This document shows, one piece after another, positions 2-54,220 of a DNA stretch of 64,000 nt. Source of the stretch: Acidobacteriota bacterium (lineage in GTDB: Bacteria; Acidobacteriota; UBA890; WLXD01); NCBI GenBank assembly GCA_963666055.2, contig CAXWPH010000015.1:1312001-1376000 (forward strand), in the 5' to 3' direction. The translations under genes and the position numbers were made by a program. Below the pieces are notes generated by a model, which searched no databases, was not told where the DNA came from, and worked only from the letters and a program-made list of their open reading frames with translations. Position 1 is the first letter of the stretch, and each line of letters starts with the position of its first letter.

Positions 2-1858
2 CTCCACGACATCGCCGATGCACGGATCTGGATCATCAACGCGATCGATGATCCGGACAGAGGCATCCCGCGACCAACGACCTCGGCAACAGACGCGGCC
101 GGCGGTGGCGCCCGGCGCACGCCGCAGACGTGGATCGCCGCCGTCGCGCTGGCGGTGGCCACCCTTGCCGTCGCCTGGGGGCTTAGCCGCGGTGGTGAGG
201 CGCGGCCGGGATTGGAGTTCGGTCCCACCCACCGGGTCACCGTAATCCCGGGACTCGAGGTCCACCCGGCCATCTCGCCCGATGGATCGATGGTTGCCTA
301 CGCGGCGGGCGCTGCCGACGGGCGGATGCGCCTGTTCGTGCGCCAGCTCGCCGGCGGCAGGGCATTGGCCCTCACCGAGGGGCCGTGGGACGCTCAGCAG
401 GAGGCACCGGCCTGGTCGCCCGATGGTACCCAGATCGCGTTCAACTCGGGCGGCAGGGTGTTCGTCGTACCCGCTTTCGGCGGAGTACCCCGGGAGCTCG
501 TGGAGTCAGCGGATTGGGGAGGCGTGGCTTGGTCTCCGGACGGTGCCAGCATCGCCTTCGTACGCTCGGGTTCGTTGATGCGCCAGGAGATCGACGGCGG
601 CGAGCTCCAGGAGCTGGCCTCGCCGCCAGTATCCAATGCACCGGCGTGGTCGCCCGATGGAGTCTGGATCGCCGTCGTATCGCGAACCCTGGGCTACGCC
701 TTTGGCAACTTCGTGGGCAACATCGCGTCCAGCGCCATCTGGCTGATTTCGACGGAGGGAGGTGAGCCCGTTTTGGTGATTGATGACGGGCGGGTCAACG
801 CCAGCCCCCAGTGGCTCCCGAGCTCCCGGGAGCTGTTGTTCGTCTCCGACCGAGACGGCAAGCTCGACCTGTACGGGATCACCATCGCGCCTTCGGGCGA
901 GCCCACCGGGCCACCGCGGCGTCTCAGTACCGGGCTCGACGTTCATACCTTCACGCTCTCCGCTGACGGAAGCCGGTTGGCGTACGCGGAGTTGGAACAA
1001 CGTTCAAACATCTGGTCCATCGATATTCCGGGGAGCGACGCCCCCGTCTCGATCGTAGAGGCACAGCCCGTGACTGAGGGCAGCCAGGCTATCGAGGGGA
1101 TTGCGGTCTCCCCAGACCGGGAGTGGCTTGCCTTCGATTCGGATCGCTGGGGTGACTCGGACATATACCGCATGCCGCTGGCAGGGGGACCGCTGGAGCA
1201 GCTGACAGACGATCCCGCCGACGACTTCATGCCGGCTTTCTCGCCGGACGGATCGGAGATCGTCTTCTACTCGTTCCGCAATGGCAGCCGCGATCTCTAC
1301 GTCATGTCGGCGACCGGGACCCGCGAAAGACAGGTCACCGCTGGGCCGGCGCAGGACCGCTACCCCCACTGGTCCCCCGACGGCAACAGTCTGGTGTTCC
1401 ACTCGGATCGAACGGGTCGGCAAGAGATCTGGATGGTCGCCCGCGAAGAGCGCGACGGCGATTGGGCGGAACCGGTGCAGCTCACTACCGACGGTGGCGT
1501 TCACGCCCGGTGGTCGCCGCTCGGGGACACCGTCGCGTACGGCACACCTAGTGGCCTGTGGCTCATCCCCGTCGTGGGCGGGGCCGCCCGGCTGCTGGTT
1601 GGTGAGAGTTCGACCTTCCCCCCGTTCCCGAACTGGTCACGAGACGGGCAGACCATCTATTACACGGTGGTCGATGCTCGGTTGCGGGCGCAGTTCTGGG
1701 CGGTTCCCGCCGCTGGCGGTGAGCCACGCCTGTTGGTGTTCGACGACCCCTCAATGCCGTCGTACAGATCGCATTGGGCCACGGACGGCGAGCGCTTCTA
1801 CTTCACCATCGCCGAGATGGAGAGCGATATCTGGGTGATCGAGCTTGGCTCGCGCTGA
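2..1858 (+). CDS. Ser/Thr protein kinase with TolB-like (PD40) beta-propeller, 5'-truncated by the window edge
   Basis: The frame is open from base 2: LHDIADARI (end of kinase domain, cf. RLRDIGDVRV in 11235-13880), then a TM segment and many WSPDG repeats. Confidence 0.85.
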   Translation, partial: LHDIADARIWIINAIDDPDRGIPRPTTSATDAAGGGARRTPQTWIAAVALAVATLAVAWGLSRGGEARPGLEFGPTHRVTVIPGLEVHPAISPDGSMVAYAAGAADGRMRLFVRQLAGGRALALTEGPWDAQQEAPAWSPDGTQIAFNSGGRVFVVPAFGGVPRELVESADWGGVAWSPDGASIAFVRSGSLMRQEIDGGELQELASPPVSNAPAWSPDGVWIAVVSRTLGYAFGNFVGNIASSAIWLISTEGGEPVLVIDDGRVNASPQWLPSSRELLFVSDRDGKLDLYGITIAPSGEPTGPPRRLSTGLDVHTFTLSADGSRLAYAELEQRSNIWSIDIPGSDAPVSIVEAQPVTEGSQAIEGIAVSPDREWLAFDSDRWGDSDIYRMPLAGGPLEQLTDDPADDFMPAFSPDGSEIVFYSFRNGSRDLYVMSATGTRERQVTAGPAQDRYPHWSPDGNSLVFHSDRTGRQEIWMVAREERDGDWAEPVQLTTDGGVHARWSPLGDTVAYGTPSGLWLIPVVGGAARLLVGESSTFPPFPNWSRDGQTIYYTVVDARLRAQFWAVPAAGGEPRLLVFDDPSMPSYRSHWATDGERFYFTIAEMESDIWVIELGSR

Positions 1859-1904
1859 ATCCGGTTCCGAGGAGCTGAAGCGGCTCGTGCCGACGGATCA
1901 GTAG
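1855..1904 (+). pseudogene. Kinase-propeller C-terminal remnant (EELKRLVPTDQ*)
   Basis: Matches the WFDELKRLVPTEP* tail at 50558-50600; 34/36 nt identical to 2206-2241. Confidence 0.75.
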
Positions 1905-1922
1905 AGACGCGGGAGGTGTTTC

Positions 1923-2215
1923 ATGCACGAGCACACGAGCCTATCCAAGCTTCCTCCGTTGTGGTTCGGGAGGGTGAGCCGAGTGGTACTTGGGGTGGCG
2001 ACGCTTGTCGGGCCGTGGAACTTGGCGGCATCCCTTTCATCGCGTCGGTACTTCTCGGTTTGTCGTTCCTAGTTGGAGGGCTGATGGGCAATCCTGGCTG
2101 TGAGCTTTCAGCGCTTCCCAACTTGGTCTTGCCGTCAGACAAGCGTGTGCACTTTCCCTGAATAATCTGGACCCCCTTGGACAGGGTGGAGCATGCGTTG
2201 AGGAAGAGGAGCTGA
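1923..2215 (+). pseudogene. Small membrane protein (DUF6410-like), frameshifted, with in-frame TGA (possible Sec)
   Basis: GGAGGT RBS and ATG at 1923 (MHEHTSLSKLPPLWFGRVSRVVLG); shift near 2010-2030 into GNPGCELSALPNL...HFP-TGA-IIWTPLDRVE. Confidence 0.55.
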
Positions 2216-2241
2216 AGCAGCTCGTGCCGACGGAGCAGTAG
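2206..2241 (+). repeat. Second kinase C-terminal remnant (EELKQLVPTEQ*)
   Basis: Direct repeat of 1869-1904. Confidence 0.75.
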
Positions 2242-2355
2242 CGCGCTCAGGCGAGTCTCGGGGGAGCTAGCGTGCTCAGATTTCCTATTGGCGGGAGCGC
2301 GTATTCGCACGAGTACCGGCGTCCACCTGTGCGCCGTCCACCCTAAAACAGGTGT

Positions 2356-2453
2356 GGTGTCCAATAGGTGTCCATCAACAGGCGAAAAGCGGCGAAATCC
2401 GGCTACAAACGGCAAACTGCTGTCGCTACCTAATGCGCCGTAAGTTGTTGATA
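2356..2453. mobile_element. att-arm region on the 3' side of the tRNA (arm-type repeats plus IHF site)
   Basis: GGTGTCCA direct repeat at 2356 and 2367; TATCAACAACTTA (- strand, 2441-2453) fits the IHF consensus WATCAANNNNTTR. Confidence 0.5.
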
Positions 2454-2470
2454 ACACTGGGAATCAAAGG

Positions 2471-2544
2471 CGCGCCCGGGAGGATTCGAACCTCCGACCT
2501 GCGGATTAGAAGTCCGCTGCTCTATCCAGCTGAGCTACGGGCGC
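2471..2544 (-). tRNA. tRNA-Arg(TCT)
   Basis: Full cloverleaf: acceptor GCGCCCG/CGGGCGC, anticodon arm GCGGA-CTTCTAA-TCCGC, T arm GGAGG-TTCGAAT-CCTCC; followed by CCT rather than CCA. Confidence 0.97.
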
Positions 2545-2678
2545 CCTTTATTCATCGGCACTTACAAGCCGCACGGTGGTTTCGTGAGGCCGATTATGGC
2601 CAAACTGTGCCCGCAGTTTAGCAAGAAGTCGGGGTAGCTCCGGCGCAGGAGCTGACCTAGCTGGTCGTTCCGCCAACC

Positions 2679-2750
2679 TGGATCCCCAGCCGTCGCGGCG
2701 ATAGGCTTCAGGCGCCCACCCACTCCTCTGTGGTAGCGCCATGGGACCCA
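2679..2750 (+). promoter_or_regulatory. Kinase-type sigma70 promoter, leader and start remnant upstream of the SpdH-like gene
   Basis: TGGATC-N17-TAGGCT-N33-ATG; homologous to 11173-11237. Confidence 0.65.
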
Positions 2751-2854
2751 GCTCGCCAGAGACGCCGGGCGGTTGGCGCGAAACTAGCGCGACACGTGAT
2801 TCTTCCAGACGACGATCGTAGTCCCGTCAGGTTTCCAGGAAAGGCACAACAGCG

Positions 2855-4771
2855 ATGAGCAAGATTCTGAGAAGGGATTTCATCAACGGAGCTCTAATGG
2901 TGGCAGGAACATCCATGTTCCCGTTCGGAGGCAAGGAGGACTCTGTTCTGGCCGCCCTCCAAGCACCGTATTACCCGCCAGCGGAAACAGGACTAAGGGG
3001 TAGCCACCCAGGATCGAACACCCACGCCCATGCGCAAGCATTCCATGGCAAGTCCGATTGGGGACCAACCACCAGGCTCAAAGAAGAGTACGACCTGGTT
3101 GTCGTAGGAGGCGGGATCAGCGGACTGTCGGCTGCCTATTTCTATCAACAAGTTCACGGACGGAACAAGAAGGTACTTGTACTCGACAATCACGATGATT
3201 TCGGTGGCCACGCCAGAAGAAATGAACACACAGTTGGGGGTGACACGAGAATCATCCGCGGTGGATCGGAGAGCTTAGAGAGTCCACATGCATTCAGTGA
3301 CGTCGCGAAAGGACTGCTAGACGACCTAAGCGTAGCCCTGGATCGATTCAACACCGCCTATGACTTCGACTTCTTCAAGCGACACGATTTGGGGGCCGTC
3401 ACCTATTTCAACAAGAGAGTCTTTGGCGAAGACAAAGTCGTAAAGCATCCGTATTGTGGCTACCCATCGTTTATCCAAGGGCTCAAGCCGCCAGAACTGG
3501 CCCATGAAGAGGCGGTACAACAAGCTCCTTTGAGCGAGAAAGGCAAGGAGCAATTGCTCACCGTCCTCAACGGTGGTCTACACGTATTACCGGTGCCCCA
3601 AGAGGAATCACAGGACTACATCTCCACCCATTCCTACTTCGATTATCTCAAGAGCACCCTGGGTGTCGACGATCCCGGGGTCCTACGGATGGCCAGACAT
3701 TCCGTTGTCGATGTCGACGGGGCGGGTGGGGACGTCATGACCATATTGGAAGCGCTGGAATCTGGGGCCATGGGTCTGGATCCGTCGTCACTCGAAGATG
3801 TAATGGACGAAGAGGAATATAGAAACTACATAGAGAGCTATGGGTACCTATACGACGAGGGGGACCCATACATACATCACTTTCCCGATGGCAATGCAAC
3901 GATTGCACGCCTGCTGGTACGAAAGATGATTTCTGGCGTTGGAACAGGGAACAACGCTGACGACATCGTACTATCGAGATTCAACTATGACGAGCTAGAC
4001 AAAGCCAGCAACGCCGTACGAATCAGATTGAACAGTACGGTCGTCAATGCGGTCCATCGCGGCGATCCCGACAGCTCGAGTGAAGTAACCGTCACCTACA
4101 TCAATGACAACAAGTCCTATCAAGTAACAGGAAGAGCTGTCGTAATGGCCTGTTACAACATGATGATTCCCTATCTGGTCCCCGATCTTCCAGCCGATCA
4201 GGCAGCTGCCTTGAAGCGTCTCGTGAAGCTCCCCATACAGATCACTACCGTCGGGTTACGGAACTGGAGGGCAATGAAAGAGTTGGGGATCGGAATGGCC
4301 ATGTCGCCCGGGAACATGCACCAAGTGGTGGGGATGGACTATCCGATTAGCATGGGTGGCTATGAGTTCACCAGCACGCCGGACGACCCCTGTGCCATCT
4401 ACATGACGAGTTGTCCAGTAGGAGAAACCGTTGGCGCACCTCCCGTCGAACAATTCCGCGAAGCAAGACACAGAATGCTGGCGTTAGAGTTCAACGATTA
4501 CGAAACCGAAGTCAGGGAACACCTGAGTGGCATGCTCCCAAAGAACTTATTTGAGTTCGACAGAGATGTTGAAAGTATTTCGGTAAATCGTTGGGCGCAC
4601 GGTTACGCTCATAATGGCTATGCACTCTATGACCCGGAAATGCCAGAAATGGCACGAATGGGGCGGCAACCCTTTGGCCGAATTACCATTGCCAACATTG
4701 ACTCTGCGGTTAGTTCTTATGTGAACGTTGCAATAGATCAGGCATGGAGAGCAGTGAGGGAATTGGGATGA
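2855..4771 (+). CDS. FAD-dependent oxidoreductase, spermidine dehydrogenase-like, Tat motif
   Basis: LRRDFING, GLRGSH, VVGGGISG, DNHDDFGGHA, HFPDGNA, NRWAHGY. Confidence 0.85.
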   Translation: MSKILRRDFINGALMVAGTSMFPFGGKEDSVLAALQAPYYPPAETGLRGSHPGSNTHAHAQAFHGKSDWGPTTRLKEEYDLVVVGGGISGLSAAYFYQQVHGRNKKVLVLDNHDDFGGHARRNEHTVGGDTRIIRGGSESLESPHAFSDVAKGLLDDLSVALDRFNTAYDFDFFKRHDLGAVTYFNKRVFGEDKVVKHPYCGYPSFIQGLKPPELAHEEAVQQAPLSEKGKEQLLTVLNGGLHVLPVPQEESQDYISTHSYFDYLKSTLGVDDPGVLRMARHSVVDVDGAGGDVMTILEALESGAMGLDPSSLEDVMDEEEYRNYIESYGYLYDEGDPYIHHFPDGNATIARLLVRKMISGVGTGNNADDIVLSRFNYDELDKASNAVRIRLNSTVVNAVHRGDPDSSSEVTVTYINDNKSYQVTGRAVVMACYNMMIPYLVPDLPADQAAALKRLVKLPIQITTVGLRNWRAMKELGIGMAMSPGNMHQVVGMDYPISMGGYEFTSTPDDPCAIYMTSCPVGETVGAPPVEQFREARHRMLALEFNDYETEVREHLSGMLPKNLFEFDRDVESISVNRWAHGYAHNGYALYDPEMPEMARMGRQPFGRITIANIDSAVSSYVNVAIDQAWRAVRELG

Positions 4772-4954
4772 AACGCTTAGGCGGGCCGGGGAGAGCCAAC
4801 CTGTAGACCGGGCGCTGATCCGGTGCCGGCGATGTTGCTCCCGAATGTGCCCAGGATTGGTCCCGCGAGGAACCAACGAGCCCCGATTGGGCAGCACCAT
4901 GTTCATCGGCGAGCGTCACCTCCAGCGCATGGGGGTTGAAGCTGGCTGATGGTC

Positions 4955-4974
4955 TTGATGGGACGGCCTGCTAG
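4955..4974 (-). mobile_element. IS/MITE end fragment at CTAG
   Basis: CTAG|CAGGCCGTCCC on the - strand, overlapping the sulfatase stop; same terminus as the MITE at 39256. Confidence 0.5.
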
Positions 4975-6545
4975 TCCCTCTCTCTAAAGGCTGGTCTTAC
5001 TTCTGCCTGTTCCTCCCACCGGTCACCGTAAAGCGACTTGAAAGCCTGTGCGTAGTCCGTGGATCCCGTTACGGTTCCGCCTCGCCAAAGATCGTACTCA
5101 ACATCGGAATGGGCGTCGAAGAATGCCGTGAGTCTTCCATCCAGTTCCGAAACTACTTCGGCGTAGTCAGGACTCCCGTATAGATCGTGCATCTGCTCAG
5201 GATCGTCTTGTAGATCGTAGAGCTCGTGCTCACCCGTACCTTTCAGCCGTTTCCAATATGAATACCGATCGGTTCTGATTGCACGGGTCGCCTGTTGATC
5301 CATATACACGGCGTCGGCCCACGCCTCGAGCGTCCCACCTCGTAGGTGGTCAGCGAAACTCCTTCCAGGAGAGTCAGCTATTTCCACATCCGCAAACCCA
5401 GCCAGATCAAGCACTGTGGGCATGAGGTCGTATTGCCCAACGAGCAGATCACTCACTTGCCCTTTCTTGATGTGTCCTGGATAGCGAGCAATGAACGGTA
5501 TGTTCATCGGCGTATCGTACAGACCTGCCGGAAAAGCGTAGTCAGTATGACCCCAAAGTCCATGCTGTCCGAAGAAATTTCCCTGATCACTCGTGTAAAT
5601 CACTAACGTGTCGTCTTCGAGTTGATTTTCCTTCAGTGCTGCCAATAGACGGCCGACACCTTCGTCTACCATCGTGTTTTGTGACGCGACATTAGCCATT
5701 GTTGCTTGGTCGTTGTGCATGCGTGCCAAGCTGGCGTACCACCCGGAGTACGGTGGCCTTAACCGCTCGAGTATCCTGTCGTTGATCCTGTTTCTAGGAA
5801 ACGAAGGAAACTCTTTGTCCTTGTAGTACGCATAATGAGGGTTCTTGGCGGGACCGAGGTTTGTTGGTGGGTTCAGATAAGGACCGTTGAAGGTAACCAG
5901 CAGGAAGAAGGGCCTCTGGTGATCATAGTCCTCCAAGTATGCGACAGCTTTGTCGGCAAAGAACTCGACGCTGTGCTTATCCTCTAATCTGTACGTTCTG
6001 GTGTTGTCATTGATCTCATTGGACCAGAAATCGACGGTATGGCCCAGATTGAACGTCACCCAATAATCGAACCAGTCGTCCGGCGGACGTGGCTGACCTA
6101 GGTGCCATTTGCCGATCAATGATGTCTGATATCCTCGAGTTCTCAGCGTGTACGGTAATGTTCTGTACTCTCTGATCGCATTCCAATCGTCGGGCCAATT
6201 CTCCATCTTTGCGTCATCTAGCCAGTCGTGAACGCCATGTTGAGAAGGTAGGAGCCCGGTCAGCAGTGTTGCGCGTGTTGGGGAACACATACCGTGTACG
6301 GCAAAGGCACGGGTAAGACGCATTCCTTCGTTGGCTAGCCGATCAATATTGGGTGTCCTGACATCCGGGTTTCCATAAACGCCGAGGATCGAGGCGGGTT
6401 GGTTGTCGACGACTATGTAGAGGATATTCGGCTTGCCTTGGGCTTCGGCGAACATTGGAAGAGAGAAGAAGAGAAAAGAGACAAACAAAAATGGCGTCCG
6501 ACGAGTGCCGAAACGACGACTCGGCGCTGATATCTGATCGCTCAT
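4971..6545 (-). CDS. Sulfatase (Cys-type), secreted
   Basis: CSPTRATLLTG and GKWHLG motifs; signal peptide. Confidence 0.92.
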   Translation of the reverse strand: MSDQISAPSRRFGTRRTPFLFVSFLFFSLPMFAEAQGKPNILYIVVDNQPASILGVYGNPDVRTPNIDRLANEGMRLTRAFAVHGMCSPTRATLLTGLLPSQHGVHDWLDDAKMENWPDDWNAIREYRTLPYTLRTRGYQTSLIGKWHLGQPRPPDDWFDYWVTFNLGHTVDFWSNEINDNTRTYRLEDKHSVEFFADKAVAYLEDYDHQRPFFLLVTFNGPYLNPPTNLGPAKNPHYAYYKDKEFPSFPRNRINDRILERLRPPYSGWYASLARMHNDQATMANVASQNTMVDEGVGRLLAALKENQLEDDTLVIYTSDQGNFFGQHGLWGHTDYAFPAGLYDTPMNIPFIARYPGHIKKGQVSDLLVGQYDLMPTVLDLAGFADVEIADSPGRSFADHLRGGTLEAWADAVYMDQQATRAIRTDRYSYWKRLKGTGEHELYDLQDDPEQMHDLYGSPDYAEVVSELDGRLTAFFDAHSDVEYDLWRGGTVTGSTDYAQAFKSLYGDRWEEQAEVRPAFRERD

Positions 6546-7087
6546 GTTCAGTTCCTCCGCAATGCGTCAGCGGGAATGTCCCAGATAGACACCGCCGACG
6601 CAGCTACTCCCGTCGGTGAGGTGAAGATGCCTGGATGCAATCACAGGTGCACTGTCTTCTCCAGGGATCCTCTACCCGATCGCCGGCCGGCGGCCGGCAT
6701 CAGCGGTATGCAGAACTGCTAATTGCAGGCGGTGGACTGCGCCCCGCCGCGCAGCTCGGCCCCTTTCTGACGGATCCGTCGGCACGGCCTCCGGCTGCCC
6801 CCTCCCGACTGGACCGTCGTCAGTTCACAGGCGCGAAACTGATTCTCTGCGCCTCGGATAGCCGGGAGGACAGATCATCCGGCCCAGCTCGCCGCTCGCG
6901 CGCCCGCGGCATCTCCGCTGTGTGAACTGACCTATTGTGGGTAGTTTCGCGCACCGTGGACCGTCGCAAGCTCTGGCGATACGGGTACTGGGGACGGAAA
7001 GTGAAGTCGTATCGCTGTGCGGCGATCTGCTGGGGCGTCGCGTTCGTTGCGTTCCTTATCGGAGGCGGTGCCGGCCGACTCAGCAGG

Positions 7088-7333
7088 TTACAAGTCCAGG
7101 TCCCCGAGCTTCGTGCCCGTGCCTTGGGCAAGGCTACGTCGAGCCTTCTCGATCCGCGCCAAGAAGCGCGGATCATTCTCCAGCTGATAATCGAACCAGT
7201 CTTCCTCGGTCCCGAACCCGACCAATACCCCCGCGGGGCGGCCATGGCGTGTGATCACGACCTCTTCGTGCTCGGCAAGCCGCAGCACGCGCGATAGGTC
7301 GTCCTTCACTTTGGAAAGCGCGATCTTCTTCAT
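7088..7333 (-). CDS. Phd/YefM-family antitoxin
   Basis: MKKIALSKVKDDLSRVL...EEVVITRHGRP. Confidence 0.9.
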   Translation of the reverse strand: MKKIALSKVKDDLSRVLRLAEHEEVVITRHGRPAGVLVGFGTEEDWFDYQLENDPRFLARIEKARRSLAQGTGTKLGDLDL

Positions 7334-7623
7334 TGGGCTTCTCCGAGTCTGCTGAGCCAGTCAGCAGCATCACGCTTGGCAACTACCGCAAGCACGCGTA
7401 CTTGCTGGTCGACAACGTCATAGAACACCTGCACTTCGTCGATCCTCAGTCTGAACTGCGGCTTCCGCAACCCGCGAAGCCGTTTGATCCGACTCTTGCT
7501 CTGCTTCCGTGGCTCGTGGCGCAGGTGAGTCTCTATTGCGTCCCGTACCCGCGCTCGAACATTCGCCTTGAGCTGTCCGAGGTCATCGACAGCCTCCTGG
7601 GCCAGAATGATCTCGTGTCTCAT
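7330..7623 (-). CDS. RelE/ParE-family toxin
   Basis: 97 aa basic protein with FRLRIDEVQVFY; ATGA overlap with the antitoxin. Confidence 0.88.
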   Translation of the reverse strand: MRHEIILAQEAVDDLGQLKANVRARVRDAIETHLRHEPRKQSKSRIKRLRGLRKPQFRLRIDEVQVFYDVVDQQVRVLAVVAKRDAADWLSRLGEAQ

Positions 7624-7632
7624 TCTGGCTAT

Positions 7633-7646
7633 ATTCTAGCTAGAAT
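7633..7646. promoter_or_regulatory. Palindromic operator over the TA promoter
   Basis: Perfect palindrome ATTCTAGCTAGAAT containing a TAGAAT -10-like hexamer. Confidence 0.5.
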
Positions 7647-7884
7647 TTTCGAGTAACGGTAGTAGGCATTCTCGCTGCCGGTGTGTCTCGAGCGTTTACG
7701 AACCGCGGTAGGATCCCGACACTCCCATCGGCGCACTTCGCCTATTTCTTGCCTAACTCTGTGCAAAGAGCGTCGGATTCTGGTTGTTTCTCTTTGTATC
7801 TAATTGTACGCGTGCAGTCGGAACCCACTGCGAATACAAAGGAAACGAGCGAGATACAACCAGATACAAACGGGCGGCTTTGAC

Positions 7885-7923
7885 TTAGAAGTCCGCTGCT
7901 CTATCCAGCTGAGCTACGGGCGC
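7885..7923 (-). repeat. att site: 5' half of tRNA-Arg (copy 2)
   Basis: 39/39 identical to 2506-2544; AGATACAA repeats at 7852 and 7862; IHF-like GATCAATAACTTA at 7934. Confidence 0.92.
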
Positions 7924-8075
7924 GAGTGTCTAAGATCAATAACTTAGGCCGTTGTTGGCCTGGCAAGACGAGACGGATTCGGGACATTGCCTACGAGTTG
8001 ATCGCCCACGAACCCAGACATGTCGACCATTTGACCACCAGGACAGCGGCCCAACCATCTTCGGAGGTCTCACCG

Positions 8076-9395
8076 ATGACAAGGAGTGCAATCAACCGCC
8101 GGGCTTTCTTGGGCTCGTCCGCAGCAGCAGCGATGGCGGCCGGCTGTGGCGATTCGGGATCCGCCAGCAGGCTGGCCGCGGCCAGGCAATCACGCAACCC
8201 GGTGGCGGTCGATGAGCTGCAGCCTGCGTTCTCGGAAGCCGAGTATCAGGATCGCCTACGACGCGTGCGCGAGCGGATGGCACAGGACAACATCGATCTA
8301 CTTTGGGTCATGCTGCCGGAGGGAATGTGCTACCTGCACGGCCTGATCCTCGGCTGGTACCGGGCCAACTCGCCAAAGAGCTGGCTGCCAGTCTCCGGGA
8401 CTGCCGTACATGTAGACCACGACAAGCTGATTCACTTCGACGTCGGCCCTCATCAAGCCACGTTGGACGCCATTACAGTGGTTAAGGACTTCCGCGTTCT
8501 GCAAGGCGGTATGGAGTTCGTCATCGCTGAGCTGCAGGCGGAAGGATGGCTCGGTGGTACGGTCGGCATCGACCGGTGGAGCTATAGGCCTCCTCCCGTG
8601 CTTGCGGAGCGACTCGCGGCAGCCTTCACCGGCGCCGGCTGTACGGTCGTCGACAGCAGCGATGTGATGCGCGACGTTCGGATCGTCAAGTCGCCCGAGG
8701 AGATCGCCGTCATGGATGAGGCGGGTCGGATCGCGGATGCCGGCCATGAGGCCATCCGCGCAGCCCTGCACCCCGGGGTCACCGAGCTCGAGATGTACGG
8801 CGAGGCGTTGCGGGCGATGTTCGCCGCCGGCGGGGGGACTCCGGCGTTGATCTGCGAGGTCACGAACCCCAGAGGCTGGCATGCCTGTCCGTCCCGCAGG
8901 GTCCTCGAGCAGGGTGACGCGCTGTTCGCCGACCTCTGCGGGGTTGCGCACCGTTATCACGTCAACACGTCTCGGACTTATTGGCTGGGAGAACCGCCGG
9001 CCGAGGCAGTCGAGTCGTACGTGAAGAACGCCGGTTCGTTCGCGGTGCTCAGCGAACACGGCCGCGCCGGCACCCCCATTGCCGAGGTCTGCGACGCCCT
9101 CAGAGATTACTACGACGACGTCGGCTTGGACCCGGAGGGATTTGGCTACGACCTGGGCATCAGCTTCCCGCCAGATTGGGTCGGCCCCTTCGTCTGGTCG
9201 TTCGGCCGCTACGGCGACGCTCACACCGTCGAGGTCACCGGCCTGGGCGAGGACCAGGATCAGTGGATCTTCCAGGAGGGCATGGTCACCAACTACGAGA
9301 GCGTCATCGGCGAGGCGTTGATGCAGTCCGTTGTTTTCGAGCCGGACGGGGCGCGCTTGTTATCCAAGTTGCCGATCGAGATCGCGGTCGTGTGA
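8076..9395 (+). CDS. M24 (Xaa-Pro peptidase/creatinase-like) hydrolase, Tat signal
   Basis: INRRAFLG; creatinase-type N-terminal domain; RIVKSPEEI; GYDLG; RBS GGAGG. Confidence 0.85.
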   Translation: MTRSAINRRAFLGSSAAAAMAAGCGDSGSASRLAAARQSRNPVAVDELQPAFSEAEYQDRLRRVRERMAQDNIDLLWVMLPEGMCYLHGLILGWYRANSPKSWLPVSGTAVHVDHDKLIHFDVGPHQATLDAITVVKDFRVLQGGMEFVIAELQAEGWLGGTVGIDRWSYRPPPVLAERLAAAFTGAGCTVVDSSDVMRDVRIVKSPEEIAVMDEAGRIADAGHEAIRAALHPGVTELEMYGEALRAMFAAGGGTPALICEVTNPRGWHACPSRRVLEQGDALFADLCGVAHRYHVNTSRTYWLGEPPAEAVESYVKNAGSFAVLSEHGRAGTPIAEVCDALRDYYDDVGLDPEGFGYDLGISFPPDWVGPFVWSFGRYGDAHTVEVTGLGEDQDQWIFQEGMVTNYESVIGEALMQSVVFEPDGARLLSKLPIEIAVV

Positions 9396-9509
9396 CGGTC
9401 GGGTCCGGCGCCGTGCCGATCTGCCGCCTTCGTCCGGCTGCCGCGGCGCCAATGAGCCCGGCGTCCGGACCGCAGCCCACGACAAGGTCGCCTTCGGGCG
9501 TCTCGACGG

Positions 9510-11024: not shown

Positions 11025-11073
11025 GTGGCATGCAACGCTTTGGATCGAGCGTCATCTTGCGCTCACCGGACAG

Positions 11074-11100
11074 TGACCTGCCCCCAAGTCTTGGCCCACT
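11074..11100 (+). mobile_element. IS3-family terminal repeat remnant
   Basis: TGACCTGCCCCC, the same terminus as at 57388 next to an IS3 orfA. Confidence 0.55.
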
Positions 11101-11172
11101 TCGTAACTCATAAAATCGGTGCGGGCAAGAGCTTGTTGGAGCCGGCGGAGCGGAGCGTCCTGGCTTCTCCCG

Positions 11173-44906: not shown

Positions 44907-45071
44907 CGATCAGTCCTCCACGAATTCGGCGACAATCCGATTGCTGTTCATGGGCCGCGGAGCCGCAGATCCGCGCCGCACGCGACCATCACGTATTCAG
45001 TGCTGCAGTCCGAACTGTGCCCACGATTGTGCCCGCGGGAACTAACCAGCGCCAACTGGGCCCGTTTGGTC

Positions 45072-45110
45072 TTAGAAGTCCGCTGCTCTATCCAGCTGAG
45101 CTACGGGCGC
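45072..45110 (-). repeat. att site: 5' half of tRNA-Arg (copy 3)
   Basis: 39/39 identical to 2506-2544; TGTGCCC repeats at 45016 and 45028. Confidence 0.92.
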
Positions 45111-45125: not shown

Positions 45126-45683
45126 CTATTTCACAGCAAGTTGAGACGTATCAGAGAAATCGACAATACGACCAAATCGGCCTGATTGTCCCTTTTCTGT
45201 CCCCTTTCCGCCGGCGAGCCGCCCGAGTGCGCTCCTCAGATCGGCCTCATCGACGATGTCGTAGCGGTCGAAAACGGAGCGCGTCTTGTGACCGGTGATC
45301 GCCATTGCCGTCTTCTCGGGTACGCCGGCGCGGACCAGGTTGCGGACTGCTGTCCGGCGAAAGTCATGCAGCAGCTTGCCCGGGCACCCGGCGGCTTTGC
45401 AAGCTGACGCCCAAGCCTTGCGGAACCCCTTGATCGCCTTTCCATCTCTGTGGAACACGTAGGGACAGATAGTGTCGTCAGCCGTCAGGCGCTGGTGCTC
45501 TTGCCACTGCCGCTCGATGACCTGGACCAGTTCCGGGAGTAGATCGTAGGGAAGTGTTCGCCCCTCAGAGTTCTTCGTGGTTCCGGGTTCGAGCCGCACC
45601 GTTCGCGACGCCCTGTCCACGTGTGCCCAGGTGAGCAGGAGGATTTCTGAGGGGACTCGCCAGCCGGTGTAGTAAGCGAACGT
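45126..45683 (-). pseudogene. Tyrosine integrase, catalytic domain only
   Basis: YYTGWR, TTKN, HDFRR, TGHKT, DRY; N-terminal domains missing; reads toward the tRNA half. Confidence 0.9.
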
Positions 45684-47381: not shown

Positions 47382-47466
47382 GAGGTTGATCCTCCCGGGA
47401 TCCCTTACGCGAGCATCTCTCCAACTTTCAGGTTCTGATCAGCTCAAGAGACGGGCTGCCTGCTTG

Positions 47467-47576
47467 ACGCCCCGACCGCAGCCTGTCGACTCCAGTCGAG
47501 CGCATACAGCACGTAGGCTGGGTAGATCCCGGTGCCCTGTGGCCCGGAGATCCTGTAGGTGCCGTCTTCGGTGCCG
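47467..47576. repeat. Putative element end (ACGCCCCGA..GTCGACTCCAGTCGA plus arm-like repeat)
   Basis: Homologous to 50430-50512; GGTGCCG direct repeat at 47558 and 47570. Confidence 0.5.
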
Positions 47577-47594
47577 ACATCAAAGACCGAGGCT

Positions 47595-47866
47595 AATGTG
47601 CGGGTGGTTCAGGGCGGCAGCAGCGCGGGCCTCCTGCTCGAAGCGGGCCAGGCGCTCGGGGTCAGAGGCGAACTCGGCGGGTAGCACCTTGATGGCCACC
47701 TTGCGGCCCAGGCGTGTGTCCTCAGCTAGCCACACTTCGCCCATACCGCCAGCACCGAGCTGCTCGGTGATCTCGTAGTGGCCTAGTTTGGTGCCGGGTT
47801 CCATGGCGCTACCGGAGGATGGTGGATGAGCGCCTGAAGCCTATCGCCGGAGTCTACGCGGGTCCA
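47595..47866 (-). pseudogene. Kinase promoter plus first 70 codons
   Basis: TGGACC-N17-TAGGCT-N33-ATG(47804); [12 protein letters not shown]...LNHPHI. Confidence 0.88.
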
Positions 47867-47991
47867 CGGAAGACGTCGTCACGGGCTTTTACTAGCGCCG
47901 AATGGCCCATACGCGAGCGTATCGGGAGACCTATATATACGGACGTGGCTCCGCCACCCACACATCGTTGGCAGCCTAGTTCACCCTGGAC

Positions 47992-48093
47992 GGGGACAAA
48001 ATAGGGACAATCAGTCGATCGGAGCGATCCGTTTGATTATCGTGATCCCGATAAGTCCTTTGTTTTCAAGTACCGAGGGAGGGACTCGAACCC
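47992..48093. mobile_element. att remnant: integrase tail/arm repeat plus 3' fragment of a tRNA (probably Leu)
   Basis: 47992-48014 is a 21/23 inverted match to 45182-45204; the - strand of 48070-48093 reads GGGTTCGAGTCCCTCCCTCGGTAC (T arm plus acceptor strand). Confidence 0.7.
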
Positions 48094-48172: not shown

Positions 48173-50086
48173 TCACGTTGTCGACAACAAGTCCGTCACC
48201 GCCCGATGCGCCTCACCAATGGCAACCTCGGTCATGGCCCACGCGCCCGCGTCGGAGTTGGCGATGGCGATCCGGCCAAAAGGTTGGCGGGCGACGAGCC
48301 ACGGACGACGCTCGGGCGGTAGATCATCGGGTCTCCACGCGACCTCACCCGTCTTCGGATCCTGGCCGTATGCATAGCCGTGTGGCCAGCGATTCACGGT
48401 TATCGCCGCGATGTCGCGCGCCGGGTCGAAGCCTCCGGCTGACAGTATCCGGCCGAGCTGATCCCTGATCTTGCGCTCGAAGGTCGCGAACGTCGTCGCC
48501 AGCAGACGCCGGCGCGCGGCCTTCCACTGCTCAGGCACGGACCGCCCGCGGGCCTCCGGCACCAGGGGAATGCGGAACATACGCACGACGATGGGCTCGT
48601 CAGGCGTGCTCGCGTGTCGGTAGCTCCCAATGCTGAGCGGTCGCTGCACATTAACGTTCTCGAAGTAGCTGCCTGGGCAGCGCACCCTGCTCACACCGAG
48701 CTTGGCGAAGGCGGTCCAGTTGCGGATCAGGACGTTGGTGTAGATAAGGGGCGCCTTGAGTGCGATCGATAGCGCGTGTTTTTGCGGATCCGGCAGTTCC
48801 TCGCAAATCAAAGGGATCACGGCGTTGTAGCAGGCGAGCACGCAACGACCGGCGCGAACTCGCCGGGCGTGGCCGTGGCGGACGTAGGTGACCTCGACTT
48901 CCTTGGCGATTCGCCGATCGCCACGGTGAGCTACCTGCACCGCTGTGCTCTCCAGCCGCACGCGGACAGCCGAGCCCTCCCGATCGAGCTTGCCATAGTC
49001 GAACGGAGCGTCGACAACGTCCTCCATCGTGCTGCCGGAAGCGACCTCTGGGATCAGCGACCGGACGATCAGACGCGCGATTGACGCGTTGCCATCCGGA
49101 AACTGGAAGAAAGCACGCTCCTCGACGGGTTCGGCATCGTCGTCGCCGAGCCCCAGCCCGGTGGTCCCAGGCCAGCTGCCGGCGACGAGCCAGGCGGGGA
49201 CGCCATCGAGGCCGATAGTCCAACCGCCGGAGGTCTCGAGGAAGGAGATTGCCTCGCGACCGACCTTGGCCACCTTCAAGAGAAAGTCCTCGTAGCTCGT
49301 GCGCCGAAGAAACGCGGCCTTCTCCTCCAAGCTGAGGTGGGCCAAGTAATCGATGCTCGAGTCGTGGAGTCGTAGGATGTCATCACGTGCCCCTTCGGAC
49401 AGGGGCGCGCGCGCCAGGAACTCGCGCCAAGAGGGCTCGCCTTCGCCTACTAGCAGGCGATCGGTGCCGAACGTTTCGCGGTCGAAGAAAACCGATCTGC
49501 GCAGGCCGAGCGAGCTGTACAGGTCGCTATCGACGAATTCGGAGTAACGGCTTACGTCGATGCCAATCCCGCGGATCAGGCGCTGGGCTCCTTCACCGTA
49601 CTCGTTCAGGTTGGAGATAAAGACCGTGCCGCCATGCGACAGGAACACCCGACCGTCGAGCCGGAACTCGTTGCGCTTGGCATGACCGCCGAAGTCGTCG
49701 TGGTTGTCGAGAATCAAGATGCGGGCGCCGGGAACAGCTTCTTGATAGAACCACGCCGCCGCGAGGCCGCTGAGGCCACCGCCAACCACGACCAGATCAT
49801 AGAGCTCACCCGTCTCCTCCGCGTTGTCCCAGCGCATGCCTTCGACAAGCTGGTGGGCAACCTCGTAGGAGCCGTCGTGGCTGCCGCGCATACCAGTGCG
49901 GATGGGTGGATACGTGTCGGCGAGGGCCTGTGAGACTCTTCCCGGAGCCTCAGGGCTCGCCAGGGCGTTCGTCTGCGCCCATGGGAGCGTGAGACTGCCG
50001 CTCAGCGCAACGCTGATACCGGAGACAAAGTCGCGACGGTTAATCTCCCGGTGCATCCCGAGATCACGATCATCACTGCTGGACAT
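48173..50086 (-). CDS. Spermidine dehydrogenase-like FAD oxidoreductase, Tat motif
   Basis: INRRDF, GMRGSH, DNHDDFGGHAKRNE, FPDGNA, NRWPHGY. Confidence 0.88.
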   Translation of the reverse strand: MSSSDDRDLGMHREINRRDFVSGISVALSGSLTLPWAQTNALASPEAPGRVSQALADTYPPIRTGMRGSHDGSYEVAHQLVEGMRWDNAEETGELYDLVVVGGGLSGLAAAWFYQEAVPGARILILDNHDDFGGHAKRNEFRLDGRVFLSHGGTVFISNLNEYGEGAQRLIRGIGIDVSRYSEFVDSDLYSSLGLRRSVFFDRETFGTDRLLVGEGEPSWREFLARAPLSEGARDDILRLHDSSIDYLAHLSLEEKAAFLRRTSYEDFLLKVAKVGREAISFLETSGGWTIGLDGVPAWLVAGSWPGTTGLGLGDDDAEPVEERAFFQFPDGNASIARLIVRSLIPEVASGSTMEDVVDAPFDYGKLDREGSAVRVRLESTAVQVAHRGDRRIAKEVEVTYVRHGHARRVRAGRCVLACYNAVIPLICEELPDPQKHALSIALKAPLIYTNVLIRNWTAFAKLGVSRVRCPGSYFENVNVQRPLSIGSYRHASTPDEPIVVRMFRIPLVPEARGRSVPEQWKAARRRLLATTFATFERKIRDQLGRILSAGGFDPARDIAAITVNRWPHGYAYGQDPKTGEVAWRPDDLPPERRPWLVARQPFGRIAIANSDAGAWAMTEVAIGEAHRAVTDLLSTT

Positions 50087-50238
50087 AGGTCGTCCTCCAG
50101 CTTCTCTGACGCCGTAGCTGCGCGGATCGTCGGTTCTCGAGTCCCTACCGATTCCCCTCGTGTCCAAACTCTACCGTTCCGGAGCCTAATGCCCAGCTGC
50201 GCTGAGCGCCACGGCACGTCGGAGGGGAATCCGCCGAT

Positions 50239-50390
50239 CGTGTCGCGTGCTCGACACACCTGCCCCATACCGCTTTCACCGAGCGGGGCGAGGGTCTCGT
50301 AGTGGCCTAATCGCGTGCCAGGTTCCATAGCGCTGCCAGCCGGGGTTGGGTGGGCGCGTGAAGCCTATCGTCGGGGCACGCGGGGGTCTA
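50239..50390 (-). pseudogene. Kinase promoter plus first 30 codons
   Basis: TAGACC-N17-TAGGCT-N33-ATG(50328); MEPGTRLGHYETLAPLGESGMGQVCRARDT. Confidence 0.88.
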
Positions 50391-50557
50391 CGGGCGGGCA
50401 CCGCCGTGGCCCCAGCTTCGCGTGCCGGAACGCCCCGATACCTCAAGTAGTCGACTCCAGTCGACTGGCGTCTACTGGAGTGAACCCCAGTCGTGGAGAC
50501 GTTTTGGAGACGGCAAGTCAGCGACGCGGCGGATCTTGGTGGTCTGCGCTGGGTAGG

Positions 50558-50990
50558 CTACGGCTCCGTCGGCACGAGCCGCTTCAGCTCGTCGAACCAT
50601 TTGAGCACAACTTCGATCTGGGTAACCGGCTCCGCCGGCTCGGAGAATTTGATCATCACAAGATCGCCGTCGGGAGTGATGTCGTAGGCTCGGACGGGGC
50701 TCGTCCAGACCACCCCCGGCGCCTCAAACAACACGCTCGGCGTTCCGAGATCGAGTGTTTCACCGCCGGTGACTGTGACCTCGACGATCATCATCCGCTC
50801 ATACAGCTCTCCTGCTCGATACAAGAGCGCTTGCCCGTCCCTCCCCCACACCGGGCTGGTGCCACCGTTCGTCGAGATCCGTATCTCTGGGTCTGGTCCC
50901 GGGAAAGGCCGCACGTAAATCTCGTGCTGCCCCGTGTGATCGGAGGCATAGGCTAACCACGTCCCAACTGGCGAGAACGTCGGGGGATAC
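50558..50990 (-). pseudogene. Kinase-propeller C-terminal remnant
   Basis: FSPVGTWLAYASDHTGQHEIYVRPFPG...WFDELKRLVPTEP*. Confidence 0.85.
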
Positions 50991-51371: not shown

Positions 51372-51484
51372 ATGACGTTGCTCGGTCACCTGACCGAGCT
51401 CCGCCGACGCCTCATCGTCAGCTTGGTGACGTTCGTCATCGGGATGGTGGTGTGCTGGGCGTTCGCGGCGGACATCTACAGGCG
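51372..51484 (+). pseudogene. tatC: TatC N-terminal fragment
   Basis: MTLLGHLTELRRRLIVS; homology ends after the first TM. Confidence 0.8.
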
Positions 51485-51613
51485 GATGTCCCAGCTCGTC
51501 CCAGGACGCTGTTCCTGGAAGACCAAGTTCCCGTCGAACGACCAGGCCCATGGGGATTGGATGTTCGGGCTCTTGGTGAGCTGCTCGACCTCCCCGCTGC
51601 CGTCGGCCCTCTG
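51485..51613 (-). pseudogene. Kinase-propeller internal remnant
   Basis: QRADGSGEVEQLTKSPNIQSPWAWSFDGNLVFQEQRPGTSWDI aligns to SVEGSREPEELI..PSDWSADG..GGDV of the intact kinase. Confidence 0.75.
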
Positions 51614-51786
51614 GATCAGTTTGGACCTCGTCTGGACCCTGGCGTTGGGCGTTACCGGCGTGCTGCCCCTGTTGTTGGGGAGTGGGTAACGGCGGGGGAA
51701 CGTGAGCCCCCCGTGATCGCTACGGCGCTATGTCGCTTCGATGAGCGCCTCGATCGCCAGATGCGCCGCGCCGATCGCACCTTCGG

Positions 51787-52049: not shown

Positions 52050-53957
52050 CTACGCCAGCAGATCGCGGATCGCCCGGTGTCCTTGGTCGATGGCACAATC
52101 GACGTAGGCTTCGCCACCGGCATCCGAGTTGGCAACTGCCACCCTTCCGAACGGCTTACGGCCGATGACACAGGGCATGTCCTCGTCGGTCCAGTCCGGC
52201 TCGCCGAGGTAGGCGTACTCGTAGGCGTAGCCGTGCGGCCAACGGTTGACGGTAATGGCCTCGATATCGGAGGCTGGATCAAAGCCTCCGGCACCGAGGA
52301 TGCGGCCGAGTTGGTCCCGAATGTTGTGCTCGAAGACCCTGAAGGGGGTCGTCAACAGCTCATAGCGTCCCGCCCGGAACTGCTCTTTGGGCGGCAAGCC
52401 GGGCTTCGTCGAGCTGCGAGAGAGGTGCAACGCCGTCGGCTCATCCGGAGAGCTCGGGTAGCGATAGTCGCCGAGGCTGACAGGGAAGTCCAGGCTGACT
52501 CCGGCGAAATAACTACCCGGACAGGAGACACCGCTAATCCCCAGCTTGTGGAAGCAGCGCCAGTTGCGGATCACGACGTTCGTATAGGTTAGCGGCAGCT
52601 TCACTGCATAGGAGAGGGCTTGCTTTTGTTGCTCCGGCATCTCCGGGCAAAGATACGGAATGACGCTGTTCCAACAGGCCAGTACCGCGTAACTACCCCT
52701 CACCCGCTCTGCTTTGCCGGCTCGCACGTAGGTTAGCTCGACATCGGCGGCACTCTCGGGCGCCCCCCGATGGAGCACCCGGACCACCGTGCTGTCGAGA
52801 CGCACTCGCGCCGGCGCACCGGGCTCGTCGAGCCGACCGTAATCGAAGCGCGCGGTCACCACATCGTCCATCGTGTTGCCTGCTGCGACGGCCGGGATCA
52901 ACGCCCGTACGATCAGCCGTGGGATCGAGGCGTTGCCGTCGGGAAAATGGAAGATATAGGGGTCGTCTTGCTGGTTGGCTTTCGCCGGCGCCCCCATTCT
53001 GCTCACCATGCTGCGTTCCAACCCGATTCCGTCGAATCCAGGGTACTCCAGCCTCCAGCCACGGATCGCAGCAACCCCATCGATGCCGATGCCGAACAGA
53101 CCGTTGCTGCGGGTCTGGAGATAGGTGGCGACCATAGGGTCGACCTTGGCATATTGCCGCAAGTAATCCCGGTAGCTTATGGCGCTCAGTCGACGGAGCT
53201 TCTGCTCGGGCGTGAGGTCCGGCATATAGTCGATGGACGCCGTGTAGAGTCGCACCAGATCCTTGCGCGCCGTCTCGGGAAGTGGTGTCAGCGCTGCGAA
53301 CTCCTCCCATGACATGCCGTCACGGACGATCAGCCGATCGTCGCCAAAGGTTTCGCGGTCGAAGAAGACGGCGCGCTTGAGACCGAGGGAGGCGAACAAC
53401 TCGGTGTCGAATGCCTCCTGAAAGCGCTCGAGATCGACCCCCAGATCGCTGAGCAACCGATGGCTCTCGGCGCTGAAGCCGGACGGTGTATCGATCGATT
53501 GGCTGCCTCCATAACCGATTAGCGGTCGTCCGCCAGCCTCGAACTCGTTGCGCTTGGCGTGACCGCCAAAGTCGTCGTGGTTGTCGAGCACCAGAATCTT
53601 GGCTTCCGGCCCAACCGCCTGACGGAAGAAATATGCGGCCGCCAGACCGCTGATACCGGCCCCCACGACGACCAGATCGTAGCGCTCACCCGTATCGGTA
53701 GCTTCGTCCTCCCAGGACCTGCCGTCCTTGAGCTCGTGGGAGGCCTCCCAGGAGCCATCGTGGCTTCCCCGCATGCCCGTGAGCATCGGTGGGTAGGCTG
53801 CGGCTGCCCCGTCGCCTGTGATCTCCAACGGTGTTGCCGACGCCAATCCGCCCAGACCCGGTACCCCGAGCAACGAACCAGCGACGGAGATCCGCACTCC
53901 GTCGAGAAAATCCCGCCGACTGATCGGCCGATTCATGCCGAGATCCCGATCACTCAC
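52050..53957 (-). CDS. Spermidine dehydrogenase-like FAD oxidoreductase, Tat motif
   Basis: ISRRDFL, GMRGSH, DNHDDFGGHAKRNE, HFPDGNA, NRWPHGY. Confidence 0.9.
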   Translation of the reverse strand: MSDRDLGMNRPISRRDFLDGVRISVAGSLLGVPGLGGLASATPLEITGDGAAAAYPPMLTGMRGSHDGSWEASHELKDGRSWEDEATDTGERYDLVVVGAGISGLAAAYFFRQAVGPEAKILVLDNHDDFGGHAKRNEFEAGGRPLIGYGGSQSIDTPSGFSAESHRLLSDLGVDLERFQEAFDTELFASLGLKRAVFFDRETFGDDRLIVRDGMSWEEFAALTPLPETARKDLVRLYTASIDYMPDLTPEQKLRRLSAISYRDYLRQYAKVDPMVATYLQTRSNGLFGIGIDGVAAIRGWRLEYPGFDGIGLERSMVSRMGAPAKANQQDDPYIFHFPDGNASIPRLIVRALIPAVAAGNTMDDVVTARFDYGRLDEPGAPARVRLDSTVVRVLHRGAPESAADVELTYVRAGKAERVRGSYAVLACWNSVIPYLCPEMPEQQKQALSYAVKLPLTYTNVVIRNWRCFHKLGISGVSCPGSYFAGVSLDFPVSLGDYRYPSSPDEPTALHLSRSSTKPGLPPKEQFRAGRYELLTTPFRVFEHNIRDQLGRILGAGGFDPASDIEAITVNRWPHGYAYEYAYLGEPDWTDEDMPCVIGRKPFGRVAVANSDAGGEAYVDCAIDQGHRAIRDLLA

Positions 53958-54124
53958 CGCCGTCTTCCACCTCGTGGATCGAGCCGACCATCGCTCGCAG
54001 ACTCACGGAAACAACACCGCCCCGGAAGGCTCAGGCGGTGATCAAAACACAAAGCCCGCAATCAGAAAAGCGAACCGCAGAAAGACCGGCGGCCAAGAAT
54101 CCGAAGGGCTCGGCGATCACCACC

Positions 54125-54220
54125 CATGGCGATGAAGCGCACGCCGTCCGACTCATCGAACCCGTGGATGGTGGCGATGTTGGGGTGGTTCAGCGAGGCG
54201 AGCAGCTTGGCTTCGCGCTC
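54125..54220 (-). pseudogene. Kinase fragment (subdomains III-V)
   Basis: EREAKLLASLNHPNIATIHGFDESDGVRFIAM, identical in protein to the intact kinase. Confidence 0.9.

Follow-up and report, generated by a model that had tools for sequence, protein, structure and literature searches.

Background

Genomic islands that carry no integrase of their own, are bounded by attachment (att) sites and are stacked at tRNA or transfer-messenger RNA (tmRNA) genes with exchangeable cargo have been described as cis-mobilizable elements (CIMEs) and as products of tandem accretion (PMC5704250), among them the ssrA islands of Dehalococcoides (PMC3146451). In this work we compare these and other described systems with a 64,000-nucleotide stretch of DNA, hereafter the window, from an Acidobacteriota bacterium (GenBank assembly GCA_963666055.2, contig CAXWPH010000015.1), in which fragments of one family of Hanks-type serine/threonine kinases lie among unrelated genes. 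The window corresponds to positions 1312001-1376000 of contig C15 of the source genome, denoted G000 (assembly of 5.73 Mb, 64% GC); G002, G003 and G004 denote sister genomes of its genus. We denote the promoter and start end of the kinase gene by L and its last codons by R. The best reading we can offer is that of kinase-bearing, CIME-like mini-islands whose kinase ends persist beside att arms. The remnants are probably the retained ends of small integrase-less units, ordered att, promoter, kinase end and att, in which the middle of the kinase was replaced or deleted, with the ends likely acting as homologous connectors.

In agreement with CIMEs, we found flanks of attL/attR type from one system, no integrase inside the units annotated in G004, and tandem stacking. 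Unlike the CIMEs, the units have lengths of 2.5-8 kb, at least eight target specificities occur in one genus, and the ends of a host signalling gene stand beside the att arms. The tycheposons and tRNA islands of Prochlorococcus likewise show repeated site-specific integration, partial tRNAs, broken integrases and mixed cargo (bioRxiv 10.1101/2020.12.28.424599); they have their own integrase and replication hallmark genes, whereas the units annotated here are integrase-less and have the kinase or its ends as their common feature. In the minimal mobile elements of Neisseria and its arrays of dRS3 and NIME (Neisseria intergenic mosaic element) repeats, conserved homologous flanks surround alternative cassettes and are thought to aid exchange (PMC1797815), but there core genes or non-coding repeats with fixed positions act as anchors, and here this place is taken by the ends of a multigene family that is itself mobile and is coupled to att arms. 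In Rhs and type VI secretion system (T6SS) effector arrays, C-terminal displacement by homology-facilitated illegitimate recombination also combines a constant anchor with variable inserts and leaves displaced orphan 3' ends such as that at 1858-1904 of the window (PMC5361080), whereas here the cargo is unrelated and metabolic, lies in either orientation behind mostly blunt joints, and follows no toxin-immunity logic. Finally, a large family of Hanks-type serine/threonine kinase paralogs is known from Solibacter; these are old paralogs less than 50% identical, and the parts of the report compared mention neither remnants nor linkage to att sites (PMC3174227).

Integrase-less tRNA stacks are common, and their cargo uptake and change of target are usually obscure. 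Here one host family marks both ends, so that the steps can be read from the sequence, namely an intact founder, a replaced interior and swapped arms. No paper on kinase ends bound to att sites was matched by title or abstract in the open-access literature searched, and modular swapping of accessory genes in this way would apparently be new to the literature.

Results and discussion

Kinase remnants in the window and in the source genome

The window is an accessory island next to a tRNA-Arg(TCT) gene, with sulfatases, pyrroloquinoline quinone (PQQ) propellers, oxidoreductases and peptidases. The family studied combines a kinase domain, a membrane segment and a PD40 propeller, and has the features of Hanks-type receptor kinases (GxGGMG, AxK, HRDxKPxN and DFG motifs, one membrane segment, and PD40 by Pfam); the kinase motifs and a hydrophobic segment near residues 305-330 were found in all four genes checked. 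The named proteins closest to the window kinase are from Acidobacteriota, 94% and 79% identical, and 66 open reading frames (ORFs) of G000 have the kinase catalytic motif. PADLOC matches, compared with the anti-phage systems PD-T4-6 and PglW, reached only the kinase domain in three of three proteins and appear generic.

Remnants were searched for by blastn with 26 family genes and by a protein profile. The initial annotation had proposed about 12 of them in the window, from at least two paralog types; all 12 were located, and both types are present. The blastn pieces have 81-98% identity. On the forward strand lie an R remnant at 1863-1904 (last codons ELKRLVPTDQ*, behind a replaced C-terminus), a second R remnant at 2206-2262, which faces the tRNA-Arg gene with its stop 228 bp away, an L remnant at 2679-2752, which has promoter-like boxes, a leader hairpin and a start codon and stands 134 bp from the tRNA and upstream of co-oriented cargo, and a short 5' piece at 41783-41826. 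On the reverse strand, internal pieces lie at 20710-20833 (amino acids 50-87), 23419-23528 (amino acids 80-115, joined to the end of an LVIVD gene by a 9-base microhomology) and 54124-54221 (amino acids 54-87, of the EAKLLASLNHP type). Also on this strand are L with 71 kinase codons at 47555-47878, 192 bp from a tRNA-Leu(CAA) half, L with 30 kinase codons at 50238-50397 (to 50399 by blastn), and R with about 140 propeller codons at 50548-50986, of which blastn covers 50548-50611 and the protein profile extends to 50986. Two pieces are slighter, namely a weak internal propeller remnant at 51470-51613 on the reverse strand (profile independent E-value 0.009; blastx 51% over 43 amino acids, E 4e-6) and positions 23524-23538 on the forward strand, which hold just the 15-base kinase start, present in 34 exact copies in the genome. 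Two forward-strand genes are intact, an 887-aa kinase/transmembrane/PD40-propeller gene with a non-standard C-terminus, of which the window holds the 3' part (1-1858), and L with an 881-aa gene of the same domain order at 11172-13880. For the latter gene (11235-13880), DNA matches of 78-84% over most of its length occur in three genomes of another family, which suggests that this paralog may have moved beyond the genus.

It had also been claimed that stop codons of cargo genes fall at or inside remnants, and this was mostly wrong. The stop at 1858 is that of the intact kinase and not of cargo, the one at 2215 ends a mere 17-codon frame, and the one at 23422 is the cargo's own; it is also present in three relatives without the remnant, and it overlaps the 9-base microhomology.

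Positions 1-14500 were compared with public contigs. Positions 1-2415 and 2523-3023, which include three remnants (among them 1863-1904 and 2679-2752), were spanned with zero differences, one contig run possibly being the source sample. Sister genomes, assembled separately, show the same joints. That the remnants are assembly chimeras at repeats has thus a negligible probability, even if the assembly has frameshifts (seen in many G000 kinase genes) and a large exact inverted duplication on contig C8 (28546-40816 and 55683-66961), possibly an assembly artefact. The duplicated C8 arm was left out of the silent-site, flank-partner and joint counts given below.

In the whole of G000 the family forms 199 clusters, 27 of at least 2.4 kb, 23 intermediate and 149 short. 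The short pieces comprise 65 5' ends, 59 3' ends and 25 internal pieces, and neighbouring pieces within 6 kb share a strand in 111 cases versus 20. Retained ends are short, below 300 bases at 93 of 140 L sites and below 200 bases at 96 of 118 R sites. The remnants exceed chance: 152 remnant loci were matched by at least two kinase genes, compared to 0-9 loci for each of the 19 largest other families, with miniature inverted-repeat transposable elements (MITEs) masked; some pieces in this count are due to frameshifts, and a family scores higher when its members resemble each other in DNA, as the kinase paralogs do. Two small insertion sequence families leave as many remnants per kb as the kinase family.

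Coupling of kinase ends to tRNA-derived att sites

The comparison with relatives was based on 80 stretches (1.5 Mb) of their genomes, picked partly by kinase matches, with the control run within each locus. Displaced tRNA halves lie outside the kinase end, mostly 130-265 bp off, at 17 of 118 R and 16 of 140 L sites and inside it at none of either, after one spurious tRNA match was removed from each count. In G000 alone, att cores were found outside 8 of 76 L and 7 of 64 R sites and on the opposite side of none, where shift controls gave 1.1 and 1.2. Seen from the att side, 10 of the 40 halves in G000 have an outward-facing kinase end (on average 2.1 and at most 8 in 2000 shifts) and 6 of the 40 have an integrase neighbour; in the relatives, 12 of 33 halves have such a kinase end (shift mean 2.4, maximum 8).

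The targets are the genes for tRNA-Met, Thr, Arg(TCT), Arg(TCG), Leu(CAA), Leu(CAG) and Leu(TAA) and for tmRNA, with SeC (selenocysteine) and Asp less certain, so that kinase ends border att sites of at least eight tyrosine-integrase specificities. The Arg halves end at base 38-42, in the anticodon loop, a known crossover position of tyrosine integrases. Between att core and kinase end there are paired direct repeats resembling what are termed arm-type sites, and in G000 those at R match the repeats beside integrases elsewhere in the genome for Met, tmRNA and Leu(CAA). The initial annotation had likened the arrangement to an integron without attC sites, which is misleading, since the kinase ends are linked to att sites that derive from tRNA genes and are used by tyrosine integrases.

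In the window, the integration target is the tRNA-Arg(TCT) gene at 2469-2544 on the reverse strand, with the crossover at tRNA base 39 (window 2506) in the anticodon loop. Positions 2545-2640 hold the att arm of the newest unit, with a TGTGCCC-type repeat at 2606, and homologous arms stand behind displaced halves in G002 and G004. A displaced tRNA-Arg 5' half (bases 1-39; 7885-7923, reverse) is the right border of the first unit, of 5.4 kb, within which a ParE-like toxin-antitoxin gene lies at 7330-7623. The second displaced 5' half (45072-45110) belongs to an att arm with TGTGCCC at 45016 and 45028 (45016-45110, reverse). Beside it lies the C-terminal half of a tyrosine integrase (45144-45683, reverse), 77% identical to an intact 363-aa integrase next to tRNA-Arg in G002; its own arm repeats, at 45187 and 45198, read TGTCCC, compared to TGTGCCC at most kinase-linked Arg units. 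G000 has 29 matches to the integrase family PF00589. The tRNA-Leu(CAA) 3' half (48070-48093) forms with an att arm (TGTCCC twice) the segment 47993-48093 (reverse), and at 50398-50547 (reverse) a tmRNA-type arm (GTCTCCA twice) runs directly into an att-L spacer; by comparison with locus L028 of G002, the intervening att core appears to have been deleted.

Halves of different tRNAs (Met/Thr and Leu/Thr) are also stacked at distances of about 200 bp, separated by arm repeats, which looks as though several att addresses were present on some elements (G000 C15:481222-481474, C10:20102-20401, C14:492902-493156 and C6:286767-287244). ARAGORN reports some halves as whole tRNAs, for example the 'Pyl' at C5:65608.

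Founder units, derivatives and alternative cargo

At tRNA genes there are stacks of units of 2.5-8 kb, separated by tRNA halves that are all broken at one base; in some units a kinase is the sole content. In G004, seven tRNA-Arg halves lie no more than 27 kb from the gene; G002 has three halves and the window two. The tRNA-Arg stack of G004 consists of att-bounded units of 2.5-6.4 kb, of which one resembles a founder, with att, L, an intact 931-aa kinase and att. Neighbouring units with the same att-L spacer have an antisense amidohydrolase gene between att-L and R-att, or a PQQ gene behind att-L, where L has 41 nt; in two further units a Calx-beta gene is followed by R and att. None of the 13 integrase matches of G004 lies in this region, with no PF00589 match at 2.34-2.52 Mb and none by Pfam among the 10 ORFs of loci L006-L007, in which no replication genes were seen.

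In relatives, different cargo or an intact kinase was seen at the same anchors. The block 2506-4965 of the window is 94% identical in G002, where it occupies a different place in the stack and begins exactly at the att crossover base. The kinase at 11172-13880 has a 94% copy in G003 that is directly followed by an Arg att arm and half. One Met arm with L is followed by long kinases in G004, and in G000 by three cargos that differ from one another; one Thr-type arm with L is followed by four cargos. At G000 C15:1078593-1079625 one cargo lies between two short R cores, where G004 has the window's RidA gene and G003 has RidA and more. In the window this gene (23730-24974) encodes three RidA/YjgF domains, and in the G004 version the start is replaced by a GTG within an R core.

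Joints between kinase ends and cargo

Among 353 inner joints, 80 had a donor in its native context, at other loci or in other species. Microhomology as the rule is rejected by the counts: at 66 of the 80 joints two bases or fewer are shared with the kinase, and at 9 of the 80 four or more, so that the joints are mostly blunt. Homology-facilitated illegitimate recombination uses microhomologies of 3-10 bases, and blunt joints make it a poor fit as the main route; the other feature of this process, a homologous anchor on one side, is present, with alternative inserts. As judged from the joint sequences, end joining would fit better than microhomology-guided capture. Ku and ComEC are each encoded in all five genus genomes, which shows a possibility only.

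These results bear on the model of the initial annotation, in which transformed DNA recombines by the homology-facilitated illegitimate route, with the kinase paralogs as general anchors and independently of att sites. The presence of ComEC, the alternative cargo at shared anchors, the 9-base microhomology in the window, the co-orientation of neighbouring pieces and a similar proposal for Vibrio T6SS arrays (PMC5361080) are in its favour. We regard it as highly unlikely, since so many joints share at most two bases, remnants stand at only 12% of synteny breaks (see below) and the model does not predict the polarity of the att sites.

Structure of the L and R ends

L has a sharp left edge about 65 bases upstream of the start codon. 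Its -35-like and -10-like boxes are 17 bases apart and precede a leader hairpin and the start. A sigma-70 consensus scan of 11100-11260 scored zero promoters at its thresholds, and the label 'promoter' for L therefore rests on spacing, position and conservation; the leader hairpins have modest z-scores of -1.3 to -2.0. R comprises the last 15 codons and a short tail. The L motif occurs in all five genus genomes and in none of 13 other genomes of the order searched, and copies of the R motif number 57, 28, 15, 10 and 2 in the genomes of the genus and do not exceed 2 outside it (31 genomes). Genes behind L are co-oriented in 36 cases versus 10, and genes before R are on the same strand in 26 cases and on the opposite strand in 25. 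In addition, 7 of 56 short L pieces are fused in frame into ORFs of at least 390 aa. Co-orientation and fusions after L, with random orientation before R, suggest that L likely lends expression to cargo and that R is unlike a cassette end.

Integrons offer a further comparison, with their arrays of one- to three-gene cassettes and, as with L, a portable promoter upstream of the cargo. In integrons an attC site with the boxes RYYYAAC...GTTRRRY follows each cassette, and the cassettes lie next to IntI in a uniform orientation. Here cargo orientation is not fixed. R was rejected as an attC or other recombinase core on account of attC core boxes at only 1 of 118 R sites, of breakpoints scattered over R positions 9-32 on the inner side, and of repeat arms with ordinary conservation. 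More generally, L and R might themselves be attC-like recombinase sites or transposon ends; the sharp left edge of L, a 6-base inverted repeat around a 7-base spacer in R, and orphan R copies whose first and second codon positions match the consensus in all but about 2% of cases would agree with this. The breakpoints and arm conservation just given speak against it, the sharp edge coincides with the -35-like box, and we consider the idea largely refuted and very improbable. In four empty-site comparisons no target duplication was tied to L and R, the CTAG duplications being those of a MITE and the others 6-base repeats.

IntI was found above the cut-off only in G002 (one of four genomes), and the attC-like array adjacent to it has no kinase ends. 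This locus, L091 (G002 C8:1205001-1225000), holds the integron integrase and at least five attC-like sites, and the G000 copy (C10:50422) is broken.

Several observations concern the ends themselves. At G000 C15:414881-417403, C10:8305-10836 and C15:525456, members of one cargo family continue in frame from the initial 20-25 codons of a kinase, with different junctions and kinase types and with R or the start of a second kinase directly 3'. A conserved spacer of about 190 bp links R to L head to tail (G000 C6:266050, C6:291807, C10:13339, C15:790951 and others), and its central motif, with 16 occurrences, has a spacing reminiscent of a tyrosine-recombinase core. A dif-like core in this spacer was rejected: the Escherichia coli dif pattern was unmatched at 8 mismatches, and zero crossovers were placed in the spacer motif. 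An ORF of about 70 codons converges on R at G000 C14:289276, C15:535059, C15:1061071 and C15:1287788, and we take it to be a candidate relative of the RNA polymerase alpha C-terminal domain.

Kinase ends as connectors

In order to assess whether the ends act as connectors, we compared flanks across genomes. A 4.9-kb block that is 99.4% identical between G000 and G002 ends in R and then continues into a Met arm in one genome and a Leu arm in the other. In other blocks the flank switches at R to sequence that also follows a third R, and one and the same cargo occurs with different L subtypes. A partner matching in register and only downstream was found for 24 of 78 R sites compared to 38 of 1046 cargo stops, the sites not being independent, so that p-values overstate the difference; mosaic flanks were found at 6 of 78 R sites and 18 of 1046 cargo stops. 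Among intact B-type kinases, one distant kinase being left out, identity at fourfold sites reaches 0.90 over the last 15 codons and 0.57 over the first 30, compared to 0.44 for the kinase core and 0.32-0.33 for the propeller. With silent sites homogenised at the ends and diverged in the body, sensor domains also appear to be swapped between constant ends, as far as silent sites can indicate.

Thus the proposal of a reusable anchor stands in part. Alternative cargo, flank switches in register and homogenised silent sites agree with it, and the break counts argue against any general stitching of cargo by remnants. The predicted enrichment of remnants at junctions was weak or absent; a remnant in either genome was seen at 75 of 624 synteny breaks (12%). 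The islands are reshuffled gene by gene at nearly every spacer, MITEs and tRNA halves being other types of junction.

The break counts belong to a group of results that weigh against our preferred reading. Remnants account for 53 of 513 non-coding breaks while covering 8.2% of such DNA (p=0.047), and the break rate in shared remnants is 6.2 versus 4.9 per kb (24 seen, 18.9 expected, p=0.15). Mosaicism of L between cargo flanks was seen in 1 of 77 cases. For about 85% of L and R sites, the adjoining 450 bp contain no att core. Co-orientation after L, at 78%, is a modest excess over an island background of about 62%. Internal pieces are under-detected because the middle of the gene has diverged, and the loci of relatives, as stated above, were chosen with some regard to kinase matches. 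The homogenised ends could result from selection on the C-terminal peptide together with conversion among intact kinases, with cargo uninvolved. Circular forms, excision and transfer were not observed, with zero circle junctions among the contig joints listed.

A rival explanation is passive decay, in which the kinase is the commonest passenger of ordinary tRNA islands and is trimmed at random, its ends surviving by their arms or as captured promoters and playing no role in exchange. Break rates near background, the blunt joints and the random orientation before R are as such decay would have them, as is the expansion of the family across the order (28-72 matches in all five other genomes tested); integrase-less tandem accretion is, moreover, already known (PMC3146451, PMC5704250). 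It would leave unexplained the flank switches in register at R, the different L subtypes on the same cargo, the high silent-site identity limited to the last 15 codons, and the occurrence of one family at at least eight att specificities. We consider passive decay unlikely, though it is the strongest of the rivals.

Under the reading we prefer, that of mini-islands with retained kinase ends, the process would begin with the stacked units between tRNA halves, some of them kinase-only. Integrases with matching arms elsewhere in the chromosome may insert and excise such units in trans, or the units may move by cis-accretion. Foreign DNA would then take the place of the kinase interior through the mostly blunt joints, in a manner like end joining. 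The ends would survive because the adjoining arms are needed for mobility and, for L, also because its promoter and start codon serve the cargo. Near-identical copies of L and R could subsequently recombine, presumably by RecA, exchanging the sequence inside and outside, which would explain how one family borders at least eight att specificities. Most remnants would since have lost their att core and now be ordinary island debris.

A bolder form of this proposal is a plug-and-socket gene exchange across the whole genus, based on a domesticated signalling gene, with circles of attP and kinase moved by many tRNA-targeting integrases and the kinase ends as universal connectors, such that any sensor or cargo might be coupled to at least eight addresses and expressed from the kinase promoter; we offer it tentatively, as a doubtful possibility. 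If the connector role is true, a signalling gene would serve at the same time as a scaffold for recombination and as a portable promoter, and the kinase expansion of these uncultured Acidobacteriota would be linked to the turnover of accessory genes. The att-L, R-att and circle junctions offer exact targets for polymerase chain reaction on environmental DNA.

Other features of the window

The cargo gene behind the L remnant at 2679-2752 encodes a NAD_binding_8 oxidoreductase (2855-4771, forward). A paralog at 48173-50167 (reverse) lies downstream of L, and a third, at 52050-53957 (reverse), lies downstream of a kinase piece. Each of the three stands just behind a co-oriented kinase 5' piece, and the family has 35 members in G000. 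An N-terminal fragment of TatC is found at 51372-51689.

A MITE-like inverted-repeat element at 39252-39427, another frequent junction sequence, also occurs at 20457-20539 and 29527-29558; it is abundant, has long terminal inverted repeats and inserts at CTAG. Single MITE ends flank inserted cargo in G002 at sites that are empty in G000. Four more dispersed non-coding repeats, with many copies in the sister genomes, lie at 57170-57388, 23530-23629, 47407-47561 and 62737-62892.

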